A stretch of 64,000 nt of DNA, taken from positions 32,769 through 96,768 of the forward strand of contig CBFGTS010000017.1 in NCBI GenBank assembly GCA_965652295.1, read 5' to 3'. Shown here piece by piece: positions 48,554-62,852 of the stretch. Origin of the DNA: an uncultured Haloferula sp. (GTDB lineage: Bacteria; Verrucomicrobiota; Verrucomicrobiia; Verrucomicrobiales; Akkermansiaceae). Each line of letters starts with the position of its first letter. Within the stretch, counting starts at the first letter, position 1. The notes beneath the pieces were generated by a model. That model searched no databases, was not told the DNA's origin, and saw only the letters and a program-made list of their open reading frames with translations. Position numbers and translations under genes: made by a program.

Positions 48554-51097
48554 ATGAGCGACCCCGTGGTTCTCCAATACTGTCCCGACCTGCTTTCCTA
48601 CACCCGCCGCCGCAGCCGCGAGGTGATGGTGGGAAAGGTGGGCATCGGCGGCGGCCACCCGATCCGGCTTCAATCGATGATCACCGCCGACACGCGCGAT
48701 ACCCCGGCGTGTGTGAAGGAAATCCTGGAGCTGGCGGAGGCGGGCTGCGAGATCGTGCGGGTGACCGCCCAAACGAAGGTTTACGCCGCGAATCTGGAGA
48801 ACATCGCCCGCGAGGTCCGCGCTGCCGGTTGCGAGGTGCCGCTGGTGGCGGACATCCATTTCAAGCCCGATGCCGCGATGGAGGCGGCGAAGTGGGTGGA
48901 AAAGGTCCGCGTGAACCCCGGCAACTACGTGGACAAGAAAAAGTTCGAGGTCCGCGAGTACAGCGACGACCAGTATGAGGAGGAGCTGGAGCGGATCCGG
49001 CAGGAATTTTCGCCGCTGGTGGAGCGGTGCAAAGAGCTGGGCCGGGCGATGCGGATCGGCACCAACCACGGCTCGCTGTCCGACCGCATCATGAACCGCT
49101 ACGGCGACACGCCGCTGGGCATGGTGGAAAGCGCCCTGGAATTCGCCCGGATCGCGCGGGATCTGGATTATCACAACTTTGTGTTCTCGATGAAGGCCTC
49201 GAACCCGAAGGTCATGATCGAGGCCTACCGGCTGCTGGTCGCGCGGCTGGATCAGGAGGGCGATGACTGGAATTACCCGATCCACCTCGGAGTGACCGAG
49301 GCCGGCGATGGCGAGGACGGTCGGATCAAGAGCGCGATCGGCATCGGCTCGCTGCTGGCGGATGGGATCGGCGACACGATCCGTGTCTCGCTGACCGAGG
49401 ATCCGGTGTATGAGATCCCCGTCGCCCGGGTCCTGGCGGAGCCATTTCAGGGAGGTGGCTGCTCCGGCCCGGGGCAGGCCGTGGAGGCTGCGGCTCGCAG
49501 CCGTTCTTTGGCGGCGGATGGTGCGGAGATCGCCATCAACTGGGACGAGGTCGAGAAATCCGACGCGTCATTTCTCCCACACTGGAGCATGCCGGGTGGT
49601 GCTTATGCGGTGACCTTTCGGTTGGAAGACTCCCTGCCGGAAAGCGCGATCCTCGCGTATCGCGAGCGCCGCGAGATCCTGCTCGCCCGACTGGAAAAGC
49701 TGTCCCGAGCCTCCGGTTCGAGGAGTGTCCGCGAGGAGTTGATCCAGCTCCGCGGCGAACTCGCCGGGCTGCGGGAAGCGGTGGTGGAGTCCGAGCTGGA
49801 TCGCAGTCATGGCTCCTGTTTGTTCCGTGACGATCAGCTGGCCGGGTTGGTGGAGGAATGTCTCCATCACTTCGATGGCGTCAGGTATGATCTGTTGGCG
49901 TGGTGCGTGATGCCGAATCACGTTCACGCGGTTTTGCGACCACGGAGCGGGTTCTTGTTGGAAAAGATTCTCCACACTTGGAAGAGCTTCACGGCGCACG
50001 AGATCAACCGGCTGCTCCAGCGGGAAGGGACCATCTGGGAGAAGGAGAGCTACGATCATTTGGTTCGCGACGGCGCGGATCTCCGGCATCAGGTGGAGTA
50101 TGTGTGTCGGAATCCCGGCAAGGCGGGGTTGCAGGGATGGCGGTGGGTGGGGAGTGCGTATGAGGTGGATGGCGTTGCGGCGGGCCGCCGCAACCACGGT
50201 CTGCCCCGGGCCGGGGCAGCCACGGATGCTTCCCAGCCCGCCCCTTCCTACGACCCATTCTCCTATGCTCGCCGTAGTTCGGAGGTGATGGAAATCGCCG
50301 GCCTCGAGCTGGGAGGCGACCGGGAGATCCGGGTCTTCACCTCGCAGGAAAAATGGAACGCGGTGGCCCACAAGATCGCGAAAATGGGCGACTTCAAGCC
50401 GGAGATCGTGGTGGAGAAATCGGGCGTGGTGGTGATCGATCCCCGCGACGAGGCCGCCCTCCACGACATCAACACCATCGAAGGAACCCGTCTGGTGACG
50501 GTGGCGGACGGGCTCGACCTGGCACCGATCCACGCCTTCCGGATGCTGGCTTTCCGCCTGGACGCCCGGCACCCGATCCTGCTCAAGGACACCTTGCAGC
50601 CCGCGGCGGAAAGCGGGGACTTCGTGGAAACCCTGCTGGTCGCGGCCCGCAACCTCGGCTCGCTGATCTGCGATGGCATCGGTGACGCGGTGCTGGTGCA
50701 AGGGGAGCCGGCGCCAGGGCAGTCCCTGCGACTTTCCTACAACATCCTCCAGGCCTCCGGCGCGCGGATTTTCAAAACCGACTACGTGGCCTGTCCGAGC
50801 TGCGGGCGGACCTTGTTCAATCTCCAGACGACAACCCAGAAGATCCGCGCGGCGACCGGCCACCTCAAGGGCGTGCGGATCGCGGTGATGGGCTGCATCG
50901 TCAACGGCCCCGGCGAGATGGCGGATGCGGACTTCGGCTACGTCGGCGGCGCGCCGGGGAAGATCAACCTGTACGTGGGCAAGCAGGCGGTGAAATTCAA
51001 CATTCCGGAAGGCGAGGCGGTCGAGCGGCTGATCGATCTGATCCGCGAGCACGGCAAATGGATCGACGCGCCGGCAGGCGAACCGGTGGAAGTCTGA
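48554..51097 (+). CDS. ispG: (E)-4-hydroxy-3-methylbut-2-enyl-diphosphate synthase, long type, with an in-frame RAYT insertion
   Basis: QSM, VADIHF, RVNPGN, RIGTNHGSL, HLGVTEAG, DTIRVSLT, CPSCGRT and MGCIVNGPGE motifs; 847 aa. Confidence 0.95.
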   Translation: MSDPVVLQYCPDLLSYTRRRSREVMVGKVGIGGGHPIRLQSMITADTRDTPACVKEILELAEAGCEIVRVTAQTKVYAANLENIAREVRAAGCEVPLVADIHFKPDAAMEAAKWVEKVRVNPGNYVDKKKFEVREYSDDQYEEELERIRQEFSPLVERCKELGRAMRIGTNHGSLSDRIMNRYGDTPLGMVESALEFARIARDLDYHNFVFSMKASNPKVMIEAYRLLVARLDQEGDDWNYPIHLGVTEAGDGEDGRIKSAIGIGSLLADGIGDTIRVSLTEDPVYEIPVARVLAEPFQGGGCSGPGQAVEAAARSRSLAADGAEIAINWDEVEKSDASFLPHWSMPGGAYAVTFRLEDSLPESAILAYRERREILLARLEKLSRASGSRSVREELIQLRGELAGLREAVVESELDRSHGSCLFRDDQLAGLVEECLHHFDGVRYDLLAWCVMPNHVHAVLRPRSGFLLEKILHTWKSFTAHEINRLLQREGTIWEKESYDHLVRDGADLRHQVEYVCRNPGKAGLQGWRWVGSAYEVDGVAAGRRNHGLPRAGAATDASQPAPSYDPFSYARRSSEVMEIAGLELGGDREIRVFTSQEKWNAVAHKIAKMGDFKPEIVVEKSGVVVIDPRDEAALHDINTIEGTRLVTVADGLDLAPIHAFRMLAFRLDARHPILLKDTLQPAAESGDFVETLLVAARNLGSLICDGIGDAVLVQGEPAPGQSLRLSYNILQASGARIFKTDYVACPSCGRTLFNLQTTTQKIRAATGHLKGVRIAVMGCIVNGPGEMADADFGYVGGAPGKINLYVGKQAVKFNIPEGEAVERLIDLIREHGKWIDAPAGEPVEV
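49455..50223 (+). mobile_element. REP-flanked RAYT/Y1 tyrosine-transposase module inserted in frame in ispG
   Basis: LPHW, VTFRL.DSLP, VMPNHVH, KSFTA, WEKESYDHLVR and YVCRNP motifs; 30-bp terminal inverted repeat (28/30). Confidence 0.9.
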
Positions 51098-57513: not shown

Positions 57514-60500
57514 ATGACCGCCGCCGAAATCCGCCAGTCCTTCCTCGATTTCTTCAAGGAGAAGCAGCACACCGTCGTGCCCTCCGCCTCGCTCCTGCCG
57601 CAGTCGCCCGGCCTGCTTTTCACCAATGCGGGAATGAACCAGTTCGTGCCCTATTTTCTTGGCACCGACAAGGCACCCTACAACCCGCCGCGTGCCGCGG
57701 ACACGCAGAAATGCATCCGCGCCGGGGGCAAGCACAACGACCTCGAGGACGTCGGCTACGACACCTACCACCACACGATGTTCGAGATGCTCGGGAACTG
57801 GTCGTTCGGCGACTACTTCAAGCCCGAGGCCATCCGCTGGGCGTGGGAACTGGTGGTCGAGCGCTGGGGCGTGCCCGCCAACCGCCTCTACGCCACCGTC
57901 TATGCGCCGGACAAGGCGAAGGGTGATCCCGGTGAATTCGACCAGGAAGCGTGGGACATCTGGGCCGAGCTGTTCCGCGGAAAGGGTCTCGATCCCCGCG
58001 TGCACATCGTCGATGGCAACGTGAAGGACAACTTCTGGATGATGGGCGAGACCGGCCCCTGCGGCCCGTGTTCGGAGCTGCATGTTGATCTCACGCCGAA
58101 CGGCGATTCGAACGGCCAGCTCGTCAACGGCGACTCCGACCTCTGTATCGAGATCTGGAACCTCGTCTTCATCCAGTACAACGCCGAGGCCGACGGTTCC
58201 TTCCGCGAGCTACCCGCCAAGCACATCGACACCGGCATGGGCTTCGAGCGCGCCTGCTCGATCATCCAGAACACCAAAGGTTTCACGGATTTCTCGGTGA
58301 AACCCAGCAACTACGCCACCGACGTTTTCACCCCGATCTTCCGCAAGCTGGAGGAACTCAGCGGCAAAACCTACGTCAACATCTACCCCGAGCCCGGTGC
58401 CGACCGCTCGGCCTTCAGCGAGGAGATGAAAACGGCCATCGCCTTCCGCGTGATCGCCGACCACCTGCGGACGCTCAGCTTTTCCATCGCCGATGGCATC
58501 CTGCCCGGCAACAACGGCCGCAACTACGTCCTCCGTCGTATCTTGCGCCGCGCCGTCCGCTACGGCCGCCAGCTCGGCTTCTCCGGCGACAAGCCGTTCT
58601 TCGGCGCGCTGGTCTCGACGCTGGTGGAGCAAATGGGCGGCGTCTTCCCCGAACTCAAGGAACGCGAAGCCGCCGTGCGGGTGACGCTGGAACGGGAAGA
58701 GGCGAGCTTCAATGAGACGCTGGACCGGGGGTTGAAGCGCTTCGAAGACGCGGTCGGGACGGGGAGCGCCGGCGTCCCGCCCGGTCCTTCTTCTCCCGCC
58801 GAAGGCCCACGCTATTCCAAGCACCATGGCCTCCCTCACTTCGAACGTCCTTGGGGCAAGTATCTGATCACGGTTTCCACCGACCAGCGGTGTGAGCTGT
58901 CTGAAGAAGCTCGGGAGATCGTGCTCAATGCCATCCGTCACTTTCACCCCGACCGTTACGTTCTCTTCGCAGCAGTGGTGATGCCGGATCATTTCCATAT
59001 GCTCATCGAGCCTCAGCCAAAGACCCATGGTGCCGATGGCACCCCGGAGTTCTGGGAACTCGGGGAGTTGATGCATTCGATCAAATCTTTCACCGCGAAG
59101 GAGATTAACAAGCTCACTGGTGGTGCCGGGACGGTATGGGAACGGGACTACCACGATCGATTGATCCGCTCGGAGTCCGACCTCCAGGAGAAGTTCTCGT
59201 ACGTCACCTCGAATCCGTCGCGAGCCGGATTGACCCGAGATGACGATTACCCATTCGTCTGGTCCCAAGGGTGGAGCGAGGGTTCCAGGGAAGACTTCCG
59301 GCAGGATGCCGGAAGCAGCCGGCGGGACGCCGGCGCTCCCCGTCCCGTCACGACGCTCTCCGGCGAAATCGCCTTCGAACTCTACGACACCTTCGGTTTC
59401 CCCATCGACCTCACCGAGCTGCTCTGCGCCGAACGTGGCATCAAGGTCAACATGCAGCGCTTCGAAGAGCTGATGGAGCGGCAGCGTGAGCGCGCCCGTG
59501 CGGCGCAGAAATCGACGGTCGTCCGCGCGCTCGACATCTCCACCGAAGCGATCACCGCCTTCACCGGCTTCGATGGCGATGAAGCGGAGGCCCTCGTGCT
59601 CGAAGTCCACGAGCAGGAGGACGCGCTTTTCATCATCACCGACAAAACGCCCTTTTACGCCGAAATGGGCGGCCAGGCCGGCGATACCGGAACGCTCGTT
59701 AAAGAGGCCGTGGCCGTGAGCGTCACCCACGTGCAACAAATCGGCCGCGCCCGCGCGCATGCGGTTTCCAAATCGGAAATCTCCAATCTCCAATCTTCAA
59801 TCCAGCCCGGCGACACGGTGAAGCTCCGCATCGACGCCAAACGCCGTCGCCCGATCGAGGCCCACCACACCGCCACCCACCTCCTCCACTGGGCCTTGCA
59901 CGAGGTCGTTTCGAGCGACGCGGCGCAGCAGGGTTCGTCGGTCGATGACACCCGCCTGCGGTTCGACTTCAACAGCGCGCCGGTCACGCCGGAGCAGATC
60001 GAGGCGATGGAGGAAAAGGTGAACGCCTGCATCGCCGCCGATCAGCCGGTTTCCTGGAAGGAAGTGCCGCCCGCCGAGGTCAAGGATCGCAAGGATGTGA
60101 TGCAGTTCTTCGGTGACAAGTACGGAGATACGGTGCGCGTCGTACAAATCGGCGGCACGCCGGGCGCGATTGATGGCTACTCGATGGAACTCTGCGGCGG
60201 CACCCACGTCCGCACGACCGGCGAGATCGGGCTTTTCAAGATCAAGAGCGAGGGGGCGATCGCCTCCGGCGTGCGGCGGATCGAAGCCGTCTGCGGCGAG
60301 AGCGCGTGGGAGCACCTGCGCGAGGTGGTGGCACAGCTTGATGAGGAATCCGACAACCTGCACGCCAAGCTTTCCGCGGCGAACGCACGTCTCTCGGAAC
60401 TCGGTGAGGAGCCGCTTCAGGTGGGCGAGGCCCCGCGCATCATGATGGCGATGCTCACGGAGAAGGGCGACGTCACCCAGATCAACCACACGCTCAACAT

Positions 60501-60933
60501 GGTCCGCGTGAAGCTCGATGAGCTGCGCGAGGCGGGCATTGAGGCGGAGAAGAAGGTGAAGAAACTGCAAGCCTCCTCCGCCGCCAAGCAGGCCGATGCA
60601 GCGTTGGCTTTGCTCATCGAGCAAGGCGGCCCGATCGTCACCTCTTTGGAATCGGACGCCTCGTTGCTGCAAGAGCTGCTCAACGGGCTGAAGAAAAAGC
60701 AGTTCGCGGAAGCGGCGTTCCTGATCGTGGACGATGGCGAGAAGCTCCACCTCGGCACCTACTGCGGCGAGGCGGCGCTGGGCCGGGGTCTCAAGGCGGG
60801 CGACCTGCTGCGCGAGCTGGCGGCGATCGCCGGCGGCAAAGGCGGCGGCAAACCGGACATGGCCCGCGGTGCCGCACCCGAGCGCGTGAAGCTGACGGAG
60901 ATGGAAGAGGCGGCGAAAGCGAAGCTCGCCTAG
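57514..60933 (+). CDS. alaS: alanine--tRNA ligase with an in-frame RAYT insertion
   Basis: FTNAGMNQF, FEMLGNWSFGDYFK, GPCGPCSE, DTGMGFER, LYDTFGFP, HTATHLLH, ELCGGTH and GGKGGG motifs; 1139 aa. Confidence 0.97.
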   Translation: MTAAEIRQSFLDFFKEKQHTVVPSASLLPQSPGLLFTNAGMNQFVPYFLGTDKAPYNPPRAADTQKCIRAGGKHNDLEDVGYDTYHHTMFEMLGNWSFGDYFKPEAIRWAWELVVERWGVPANRLYATVYAPDKAKGDPGEFDQEAWDIWAELFRGKGLDPRVHIVDGNVKDNFWMMGETGPCGPCSELHVDLTPNGDSNGQLVNGDSDLCIEIWNLVFIQYNAEADGSFRELPAKHIDTGMGFERACSIIQNTKGFTDFSVKPSNYATDVFTPIFRKLEELSGKTYVNIYPEPGADRSAFSEEMKTAIAFRVIADHLRTLSFSIADGILPGNNGRNYVLRRILRRAVRYGRQLGFSGDKPFFGALVSTLVEQMGGVFPELKEREAAVRVTLEREEASFNETLDRGLKRFEDAVGTGSAGVPPGPSSPAEGPRYSKHHGLPHFERPWGKYLITVSTDQRCELSEEAREIVLNAIRHFHPDRYVLFAAVVMPDHFHMLIEPQPKTHGADGTPEFWELGELMHSIKSFTAKEINKLTGGAGTVWERDYHDRLIRSESDLQEKFSYVTSNPSRAGLTRDDDYPFVWSQGWSEGSREDFRQDAGSSRRDAGAPRPVTTLSGEIAFELYDTFGFPIDLTELLCAERGIKVNMQRFEELMERQRERARAAQKSTVVRALDISTEAITAFTGFDGDEAEALVLEVHEQEDALFIITDKTPFYAEMGGQAGDTGTLVKEAVAVSVTHVQQIGRARAHAVSKSEISNLQSSIQPGDTVKLRIDAKRRRPIEAHHTATHLLHWALHEVVSSDAAQQGSSVDDTRLRFDFNSAPVTPEQIEAMEEKVNACIAADQPVSWKEVPPAEVKDRKDVMQFFGDKYGDTVRVVQIGGTPGAIDGYSMELCGGTHVRTTGEIGLFKIKSEGAIASGVRRIEAVCGESAWEHLREVVAQLDEESDNLHAKLSAANARLSELGEEPLQVGEAPRIMMAMLTEKGDVTQINHTLNMVRVKLDELREAGIEAEKKVKKLQASSAAKQADAALALLIEQGGPIVTSLESDASLLQELLNGLKKKQFAEAAFLIVDDGEKLHLGTYCGEAALGRGLKAGDLLRELAAIAGGKGGGKPDMARGAAPERVKLTEMEEAAKAKLA
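58755..59347 (+). mobile_element. REP-flanked RAYT/Y1 tyrosine-transposase module inserted in frame in alaS
   Basis: LPHF, YLITVST, VMPDHFH, KSFTA, WERDYHDRLIR and YVTSNP motifs; perfect 27-bp terminal inverted repeat. Confidence 0.9.
59770..59802 (+). repeat. 7-mer tandem repeat inside alaS
   Basis: aaatcgg aaatctc caatctc caatctt caatc, read as KSEISNLQSSI. Confidence 0.7.
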
Positions 60934-62006: not shown

Positions 62007-62852
62007 TTACGGCGAGATCGTCAGCACCTCGTCCGCCACGAAAAGCCCCGACGCCAGCGCACGTCGGCCCTGGCGGGCAAATGCCAAGACTTCCGGCACG
62101 TCCGCCGTCCGCAGGGCCTCGGTGCCGCAGAGGCGGACGGCTTCAAAAAGCGCGCGGCCGCTTGGATCCCGCTCGTCGGCAAGGATCGCCACTCCTTCCG
62201 AGCAACGGGCCAGCCGGGTGACGGCCCTCTCCCTGATGACGAAGCCGGGGTCCCGGGTATCGAGCATGACCAGTGAGCTGTCGGGGTGCCGGCGGCGCAG
62301 CGCCGAGGCGACCGTGGCCCACCTTTCGCTCCCCACATGACTCTGGCACACCAGGCCGAAGCGGGGCGAAAACGGAAGCTGCATCGCCCGGTCCACGTCC
62401 TGAACCACCACAGCTCCTTCGGCAGCGAGCGTCCGGACCTCGGCCGAGTCCGGATCCCCCACCAGAACGACTTGGCGGCTCTCGAGCTTCAGCATCCGGA
62501 TGGTCGCTCGCGTGCGGCGGATGGACGGCAGTGTCAGGTCAAGGATTTCGCATCCGGCCTCGCGAAACCGTTGCTCCTCCGCCTGGGGCAAGCCGGTGAG
62601 GGGAAGCGCGACGCACCCTTGGCAGGGGAGATCCTCCGCTGCCTCCAGGGCGCCTTGGCGACGGGCCCGGTCCAGAAGCATGCGGTCGGGAGCCAGCTCG
62701 CCCGCGAGCGTGACCGGCCCCCTTTCCAGACGCGTGAGCAATCGCCCGAACGCATCCCGCACCTCCTGGCTCATCCCGAGCACCGCCGCCGATTCCCCAT
62801 GCAACGGCAACCAAACACCTGGAGAAACATACTTTGTATTGCAAAGCGACAT
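62007..62852 (-). CDS. IspH/LytB homologue lacking Fe-S ligands (start uncertain)
   Basis: Colinear with IspH by eye: DLTLP for DATCP, VGDPDSAEV for IG...HPEV, CQSH for SQTT, DTRD for DTIC. Confidence 0.7.
   Translation of the reverse strand: MSLCNTKYVSPGVWLPLHGESAAVLGMSQEVRDAFGRLLTRLERGPVTLAGELAPDRMLLDRARRQGALEAAEDLPCQGCVALPLTGLPQAEEQRFREAGCEILDLTLPSIRRTRATIRMLKLESRQVVLVGDPDSAEVRTLAAEGAVVVQDVDRAMQLPFSPRFGLVCQSHVGSERWATVASALRRRHPDSSLVMLDTRDPGFVIRERAVTRLARCSEGVAILADERDPSGRALFEAVRLCGTEALRTADVPEVLAFARQGRRALASGLFVADEVLTISP

Follow-up and report, generated by a model that had tools for sequence, protein, structure and literature searches.

A REPtron-like RAYT cassette carried in frame in the IspG linker of an uncultured Haloferula and its relatives

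The ispG gene of an uncultured Haloferula sp. (Verrucomicrobiota, Akkermansiaceae; NCBI GenBank assembly GCA_965652295.1) was found to carry an in-frame cassette, which consists of a doublet of repetitive extragenic palindromes (REPs), a REP-associated tyrosine transposase (RAYT) and an inverted REP doublet, and which lies in the linker that follows the first domain of the encoded enzyme. The window analysed in this study is the whole stretch of 64,000 nucleotides of contig CBFGTS010000017.1 (positions 32,769 to 96,768 of the forward strand), and coordinates refer to the window unless another contig is named. The interpretation that we favour, with a probability of roughly 70%, is that this REPtron-like cassette is translated with its host, is likely to be active, and has been replaced at its site. 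The arrangement is a genuine, widespread and undescribed variant of the RAYT/REP system, for which translation and nuclease activity would be expected from the sequence evidence presented below.

The coding sequence of ispG (48554..51097, plus strand) was defined by its open reading frame (ORF) and translation, by Pfam and NCBIfam matches and by a search of the genome. It runs without a stop from the ATG at 48554 to the TGA at 51095-51097 and encodes 847 aa including the insert, as had been reported in an earlier note on this DNA. Against Pfam, the 847-aa protein matched GcpE (IspG) with 418 bits in two stretches flanking a match to Y1_Tnp. The IspG equivalog model TIGR00612 scored 476 bits against a cut-off of 280, and PRK02048, which models the 613-aa long-type IspG, was matched in two stretches interrupted by the insert, with a score (586 bits) below its cut-off of 886. 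The long IspG is presumably the three-domain type described by Liu et al. in 2012. The N-terminal TIM-barrel (A) domain spans aa 22-298 (48617..49447, plus strand; best GcpE stretch 22-294, AlphaFold strands and helices 24-298), and the middle (A*) and C-terminal 4Fe-4S (B) domains span aa 565-847, SYDPF first (50246..51094, plus strand; Pfam, NCBIfam, alignment and AlphaFold). IspG is an enzyme of the methylerythritol phosphate (MEP) pathway and is usually essential. This was the only ispG locus in the source genome, a draft of 35 contigs that is 98% complete. As ispH was present and no HMG-CoA reductase was found at this completeness, established knowledge of the pathway indicates that the MEP pathway is probably the sole isoprenoid route of the cell.

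Alignment with relatives and structural modelling agreed in placing the insert in the linker after the TIM barrel, the location that had been proposed in the earlier note. The insertion site follows the last barrel helix (284-298 in the model) and precedes the conserved SYDPF, where relatives have a variable linker of 13-14 aa. The span from SLTED to EIAG/EIMG was 305 aa in this protein and 53-64 aa in 21 of 25 relatives' loci, giving an insert of approximately 252 codons; the extra in-frame segment recognised previously was therefore recovered, with a size slightly below the 256 codons first given. The ends of the insert form an inverted repeat of 47 nt (arms 49455-49501 and 50177-50223, 85% complementary), which extends the 30-bp repeat already noted, for which 28 of 30 matching positions were confirmed in the outermost 30 nt. 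When folded as single-stranded DNA, each end formed a pair of short, G+C-rich hairpins with GTGG in front of each, again as described in the earlier note. The left end (49455..49501, plus strand) is thus a REP doublet (GTGG-hairpin twice) and the right end (50177..50223, plus strand) an inverted REP doublet (hairpin-CCAC twice), both located by repeat search and single-stranded folding. The fold of the right end, at -23.7 kcal/mol (z -3.66), was equalled by none of 200 shuffled sequences. When the full-length protein was modelled with AlphaFold from an alignment of 92 rows (mean predicted local distance difference test score, pLDDT, of 77.4), the TIM barrel (24-298), the middle domain contributed by the insert (approximately 319-535) and the C-terminal domains (579-832) were folded. 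The pLDDT was below 50 at residues 302-316 and 540-562, which are the REP-coded residues between the folded domains. The left REP doublet would accordingly be read as a disordered linker of aa 302-316 and the right one as a disordered linker within aa 540-562, with a RAYT domain that folds on its own between them.

The identification of the middle domain (aa 319-535; 49508..50158, plus strand) as a RAYT with REP-doublet ends was supported by its sequence, its predicted fold and the structure of the ends. The motifs listed in the earlier note were all present in the translation: LPHW, the HUH motif of aa 453-458 with its histidines H456 and H458 (49919-49927), WKSFTA, W..ESYDH.VR, and the tyrosine motif with Tyr516 (50099-50101). 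Pfam Y1_Tnp (PF01797) matched aa 443-497 with 24.3 bits, passing its cut-off of 23, in line with the RAYT/Y1 assignment made previously from motifs, and the NCBIfam RAYT model fell short of its own cut-off (see below). A model of the domain alone, built from 27 family members, reached a pLDDT of 89.8. Its top match in the PDB by Foldseek was 4er8_A (E 2.1e-7, template modelling score 0.63 on the target), and the transposases of IS608, ISDra2 and IS200 occupied ranks 2-10. The 4ER8 entry is the E. coli REP-associated tyrosine transposase (YafM) bound to a REP hairpin. In comparison with 4er8 and structures of the IS200 type, the domain model has an additional, long helical hairpin following its first strand. 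The HUH histidines H456 and H458 and the tyrosine Y516 were conserved without exception in the 92 IspG fusions that were aligned.

The arrangement recurred in other genomes and studies. The left junction was bridged by contigs of three other studies (X3 record 12, X6 record 18 and X7 record 26), and the right junction by X7 record 28. A survey of 401 genomes of the family, the source genome included, was performed with a match at E <=1e-58 defining a RAYT of the ispG clade. Such a RAYT was present in 62 of the 401 genomes, with one match in each, and all 62 were stop-free within open frames of 594-1213 aa. Carriers comprised 5 of the 34 other genomes of the same genus and 54 of the 102 genomes of a second one; two more genera had one carrier each, among 2 and 20 genomes respectively, and 16 other genera had none. 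For 20 of the 62, the locus was fetched, and in all 20 the TIM-barrel and Fe-S motifs of IspG were in the frame of the RAYT, in some cases on contigs of 1-5 Mb. Among public proteins longer than the query, 295 matched at E <=1e-10, and 101 of the best 120 were IspG fusions. These are named as IspG of Luteolibacter species, Akkermansiaceae or Verrucomicrobiota and represent approximately 100 protein clusters, with named isolates among them. An artefact of assembly or gene calling might be suspected in a draft of 35 contigs, and in a large survey unexpectedly long TnpA-Y1 proteins were discarded as gene fusions or annotation errors (Quentin et al. 2018, PMC6006769). With junctions bridged in independent studies, and a like architecture in approximately 100 public protein clusters and 20 of 20 fetched genomes, an artefact has a negligible probability, and misassembly was ruled out to the extent that comparison allows.

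Both junctions were in frame in 62 of 62 genomes and in 92 public fusions, and the gene is the sole ispG of the genome, which indirectly supports translation of the cassette as part of IspG. The earlier note had proposed expression in this form; the uninterrupted frame on which that proposal rested is confirmed in every carrier, and it is from this frame that we infer the fusion protein itself. As previously remarked, this ispG frame has no Met from the host linker up to LPHW, and the RAYT does not form a separate gene with a start of its own. Since no Met start is conserved for the RAYT, the transposase domain would most likely be made by straight read-through of ispG.

Alternatively, the cassette could be removed before translation, by excision of the DNA in most cells or by splicing of RNA or protein, to yield a working IspG without it. 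The HUH/Y1 enzymes of the IS200/IS605 family excise their elements as single-stranded circles, as is established for IS608. If removal were the rule, however, nothing would hold both junctions in frame in every genome. The precise-excision junctions raised in the earlier note did not appear: neither a joint skipping 49455-50223 nor a circle joint was detected in the contigs of four runs, in which rare forms are dropped. One skip of 1395 nt with a 21-letter side in the same contigs probably belongs to the IspG of another organism, and one joint to the opposite strand lay at the inverted repeat; neither was taken as excision. Inteins were ruled out by the lack of a Hint or splicing domain, as a Pfam search of the 847-aa protein at E <=0.01 returned GcpE and Y1_Tnp only. 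Self-splicing introns were ruled out likewise, with no group I or group II intron or ribozyme detected by Rfam in 49200-50500 at E <=1 and a lone chance match to a lncRNA of 13.5 bits. Removal before translation is in our view very unlikely.

Three cognate REP doublets were observed approximately 1 kb apart in one orientation on another contig of the genome, outside the window (C6:256344-258519). These probably account for the joints that go back on the sequence in the contigs of run X1, which were not taken as excision either.

The empty site, to be defined through related IspG sequences as anticipated in the earlier note, was found in 21 of the 25 aligned loci. Over the same span, full-length inserts were present in G008 (297 aa) and G003 (302 aa), and G021 had 92 aa. 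In G021, both REP doublets were kept and the transposase had been lost by an in-frame internal deletion, leaving 39 extra codons (117 nt), for which a single long hairpin is predicted at -67 kcal/mol. Another relative, G011, had a single hairpin tagged with GTAG, that is, one REP, at the insertion position. The hairpin tag was GTGG in the source genome and GTAG in G008 and G021. Because most of the aligned relatives are empty, and because G021 and G011 keep REP remnants alone, the RAYT insert appears to be dispensable for IspG.

Selection on the insert was assessed in pairs among the source genome (G000), G008 and G003. The dN/dS ratio was 0.16-0.33 in the insert and 0.05-0.12 in the flanks, values that are rough, with dS close to saturation or beyond it. 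Across 22 loci, matches between a left end and its own right end had a mean local score of 63.5 (minimum 40), compared with a mean of 32.7 against the right ends of other loci. At least four types of end hairpin sequence were distinguished between lineages, and pairing between a cassette's own ends was maintained nonetheless. An old insertion tolerated as an inert relic in a floppy linker, in neutral decay, would be in keeping with a protein distance that is approximately 2.8 times faster in the insert than in the flanks, with a lower G+C content at third codon positions (0.75 in the insert, 0.86 in the flanks), and with the existence of remnant forms. Neutral decay is at odds with the dN/dS values, with the invariance of the HUH and tyrosine residues in all 92 fusions, with the absence of stops in all 62 genomes and with the retention of inverted ends in 22 of 22 loci, and we consider a relic to be nearly as improbable as removal before translation, with a very slight advantage over it.

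The history of the cassette was examined by comparing trees of the IspG flanks and of the RAYT core. In the flank tree, G000 and G008 clustered with the remnant-bearing G021 (support 88/93). A single clade of the three full carriers was not rejected (p 0.11), and a single clade of all five non-empty species was rejected (p 3e-5). Two other carriers, G346 and G277, differed by 2.6% in protein in their IspG flanks and by 48.6% in the RAYT core; their DNA identity was 87-100% in the flanks and 37-69% across the insert only, with sharp boundaries. In approximately unbiased (AU) tests, the core data rejected the flank clade of G346, G277 and G364 (p 4.5e-5), and the flank data rejected the main core clade (p 4.6e-7). 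Purely vertical inheritance of all ispG inserts was rejected by these tests, and it fits G000, G008 and G021. The ends move together with the core, since a distinct REP type goes with each core lineage. By comparison of sequences, then, whole-cassette replacement at one site between related bacteria appears to be shown.

These comparisons also bear on exaptation, in which the RAYT would now be a working part of IspG (for example in regulation or in tethering to nucleic acid) and be retained for the enzyme. A single copy, a fixed site, purifying selection and invariant catalytic residues all accord with this, and they are the pattern usually taken for domestication in RAYTs (Corneloup 2021, PMC8266576). 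An insert kept for the enzyme would not be expected to be absent from 21 of 25 aligned relatives or lost in frame in G021, nor to have equivalents in many unrelated hosts, to retain co-varying hairpin ends, or to be swapped between near-identical ispG alleles. Exaptation is therefore judged unlikely, if somewhat less so than a relic.

Beyond what the earlier note had recognised, the ispG case is one of a family, with related elements in other genes, and its cassette has moved between ispG alleles. The RAYT family of the source genome has six members, all diverged, of which three are free-standing with their own Met and three are in frame in ispG, metH and alaS. The metH element (L004:1471-2151, contig C3), detected by homology search, lies in the activation domain in a 1514-aa frame and is the best paralogue of the ispG insert, with 46% identity; the same arrangement recurred in two relatives (G018 and G039). 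In the window itself, a more distant RAYT-like element of approximately 198 aa (58755..59347, plus strand) was located by homology and repeat searches in frame in alaS (57514-60933). It has the HUH and Tyr motifs and terminal inverted repeats of 36 nt (92%), and is so diverged that Pfam Y1_Tnp gave no match at E <=1e-5. Among 20 RAYT loci of relatives, which were picked for their long frames, the hosts assigned by Pfam were LeuRS (7), MetH (2), U32 peptidase (2), DUF5107/TPR (2), CinA (2, as a C-terminal fusion) and, once each, adenosine deaminase, CarB, an Eco57I-type methylase, a NUDIX protein and a glycosyltransferase. In the RAYT tree, clades tracked the host gene, with support of 100/99 for the ispG clade. 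The U32 clade was nested next to that of metH, suggestive of a move from one host gene to another.

Cognate REP doublets were also dispersed outside ispG. An exact-pattern search returned four strict copies only, and a short-word BLAST search revealed a wider family of approximately nine, on contigs C2, C3, C6 (three copies), C7, C8, C16 and C24. Two of them, C7:142525-142571 and C24:40265-40296, were solo doublets inside long open frames. One of these frames encodes 1953 aa with motifs that by eye are UvrA-like; the other is a U32 peptidase, in which the doublet is at the exact site occupied by a RAYT in a relative (G004).

The favoured reading, a translated and exchangeable cassette, might operate as follows. 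Since selection has preserved its catalytic residues as well as the pairing of the hairpin ends, the domain most likely remains able to cleave and join its cognate hairpins in single-stranded DNA. Over short distances, the cassette is inherited with ispG; over longer ones, it is lost with in-frame remnants, and it is replaced on site by members of its own clade, in what resembles the homing cycle of an intein without the splicing. Such replacement might proceed by RAYT chemistry at the resident hairpins or by ordinary recombination. Residence in an essential gene may offer protection from deletion and the loan of host expression signals, as only a precise in-frame deletion could presumably remove the cassette from such a host. 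A wider proposal can be put forward tentatively, and we would sooner expect it to fail than to hold: the RAYT cassettes of Verrucomicrobiota, and some of Planctomycetota, may constitute a selfish class that uses the flexible linkers of essential proteins as safe havens. An active internal domain would maintain its own ends along with a small set of REPs, some of them in frame in other genes, and would drive, or benefit from, site-specific replacement of cassettes between species, a form of homing without splicing.

A number of observations weigh against the favoured reading. On identity, the NCBIfam model REP_Tyr_transpos (NF047646) scored 69 bits, below its cut-off of 80, and the fold of the left end (-17.5 kcal/mol, z -1.83) stood weakly above shuffled sequences, 11 of 200 of which equalled it. 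On read-through, GTG and TTG codons in frame upstream of LPHW make separate internal initiation possible, and a Met upstream of LPHW, not conserved overall, was present in 8 of 88 IspG fusions (two of these with the insert at another site). On activity, the missing excision joints described above count in the same direction, and the low number of REP copies gives no sign of recent REP spread. On replacement, flank and core distances in 23 carriers were positively correlated (r 0.31, reached by 2 of 2000 permutations), so much of the cassette history is vertical; the clades in the AU tests were drawn from trees of the same data, each from the other partition, and the host tree is that of one gene, ispG. 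On residence in host genes, the tallied loci of relatives had been selected for long frames, and many other RAYT matches in relatives were in frames of 200-360 aa and apparently free-standing.

Several known systems share features with the ispG cassette. A REPtron, in what is said to be the usage of Nunvar in 2010 and Ton-Hoang in 2012, is a RAYT (TnpA-REP) gene flanked by a REP and an inverted REP. The likeness includes the HUH/Y1 fold, for which 4ER8 was the top structural match, the tetranucleotide-tagged hairpins inverted around the coding part, the single copy and the small cognate REP family. Unlike REPtrons, the ispG cassette is not free-standing, lacks a conserved Met and shares the reading frame of the essential gene around it; it also has the extra helical hairpin and a tag of GTGG (GTAG in G008 and G021). 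RAYTs are described in Corneloup 2021 (PMC8266576) as single-copy genes that stand alone, with no evidence that tnpA-REP is mobile, whereas the ispG cassette apparently moves as a whole. With the IS200/IS605 elements (IS608, ISDra2) the cassette shares the catalytic fold and subterminal hairpins. A copy of such an element was nevertheless ruled out, as no near-identical copies were present in the genome, the nearest paralogue being that in metH. In addition, the 769-nt cassette is filled by the RAYT and has no room for tnpB, and its ends are inverted repeats, in contrast to the two different same-strand hairpins of the insertion sequences.

Inteins with homing endonucleases are likewise selfish in-frame inserts in conserved genes, with reuse of sites, full, degenerate and empty states, and conflict between insert and host trees. 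The cassette differs in lacking a Hint domain, in that it seems to stay in the mature protein, and in having an HUH nuclease in place of LAGLIDADG or HNH. REP and RPE hairpins located in frame in ORFs and read as short peptides, including in Verrucomicrobia genes and tRNA synthetases, are described in Di Nocera et al. 2013 (PMC3733652), which also cites the Rickettsia RPEs in ORFs. The solo REP doublets of the source genome are comparable to these, but the published elements are non-coding repeats only, whereas here a transposase lies inside the host frame. The ShiLan element of a phage methylase (2025, PMC11855218) is a non-splicing, stop-free insert with an HNH nuclease and homing-like evolution. 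Its HNH nuclease is reported to start at a GTG of its own and to use a different frame, whereas the RAYT is in the frame of its host, and the host range and enzyme family also differ. A literature search, in which supplements were not opened, retrieved REPs in ORFs and ShiLan and no report of a RAYT that is translated as part of a host gene.

RAYTs are usually seen as immobile, domesticated and free-standing transposases, and here they lie inside essential genes and have been exchanged as a cassette at a single site. Remaining in the protein would be a third way to hide in a coding gene, besides introns and inteins. The inserts would provide a natural map of tolerated domain-insertion sites in essential enzymes, one of which, IspG, is a drug target of the MEP pathway. 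Approximately 100 public records named IspG would silently include a putative nuclease domain, and the cultured Luteolibacter species offer a testable system.

Variant architectures were observed among the ispG fusions. One public IspG of 1133 aa (P0002) carries two RAYT inserts, and two others (P0105 and P0108) have theirs at a different position, following the middle domain. Two or more positions in IspG can therefore accommodate an insert. In two fusions of the family survey, L067 (G392) and L079 (G344), tandem repeats of a six-residue unit were expanded beside both REP ends, and in L079 the right-end REP peptide occurred three times, all in frame. Finally, the main ispH of the source genome is on contig C7, and a second, weak match to LYTB (IspH-like, Pfam, 46.7 bits) was located in the window at approximately 62100-62735 on the minus strand, in a frame of 292 aa.

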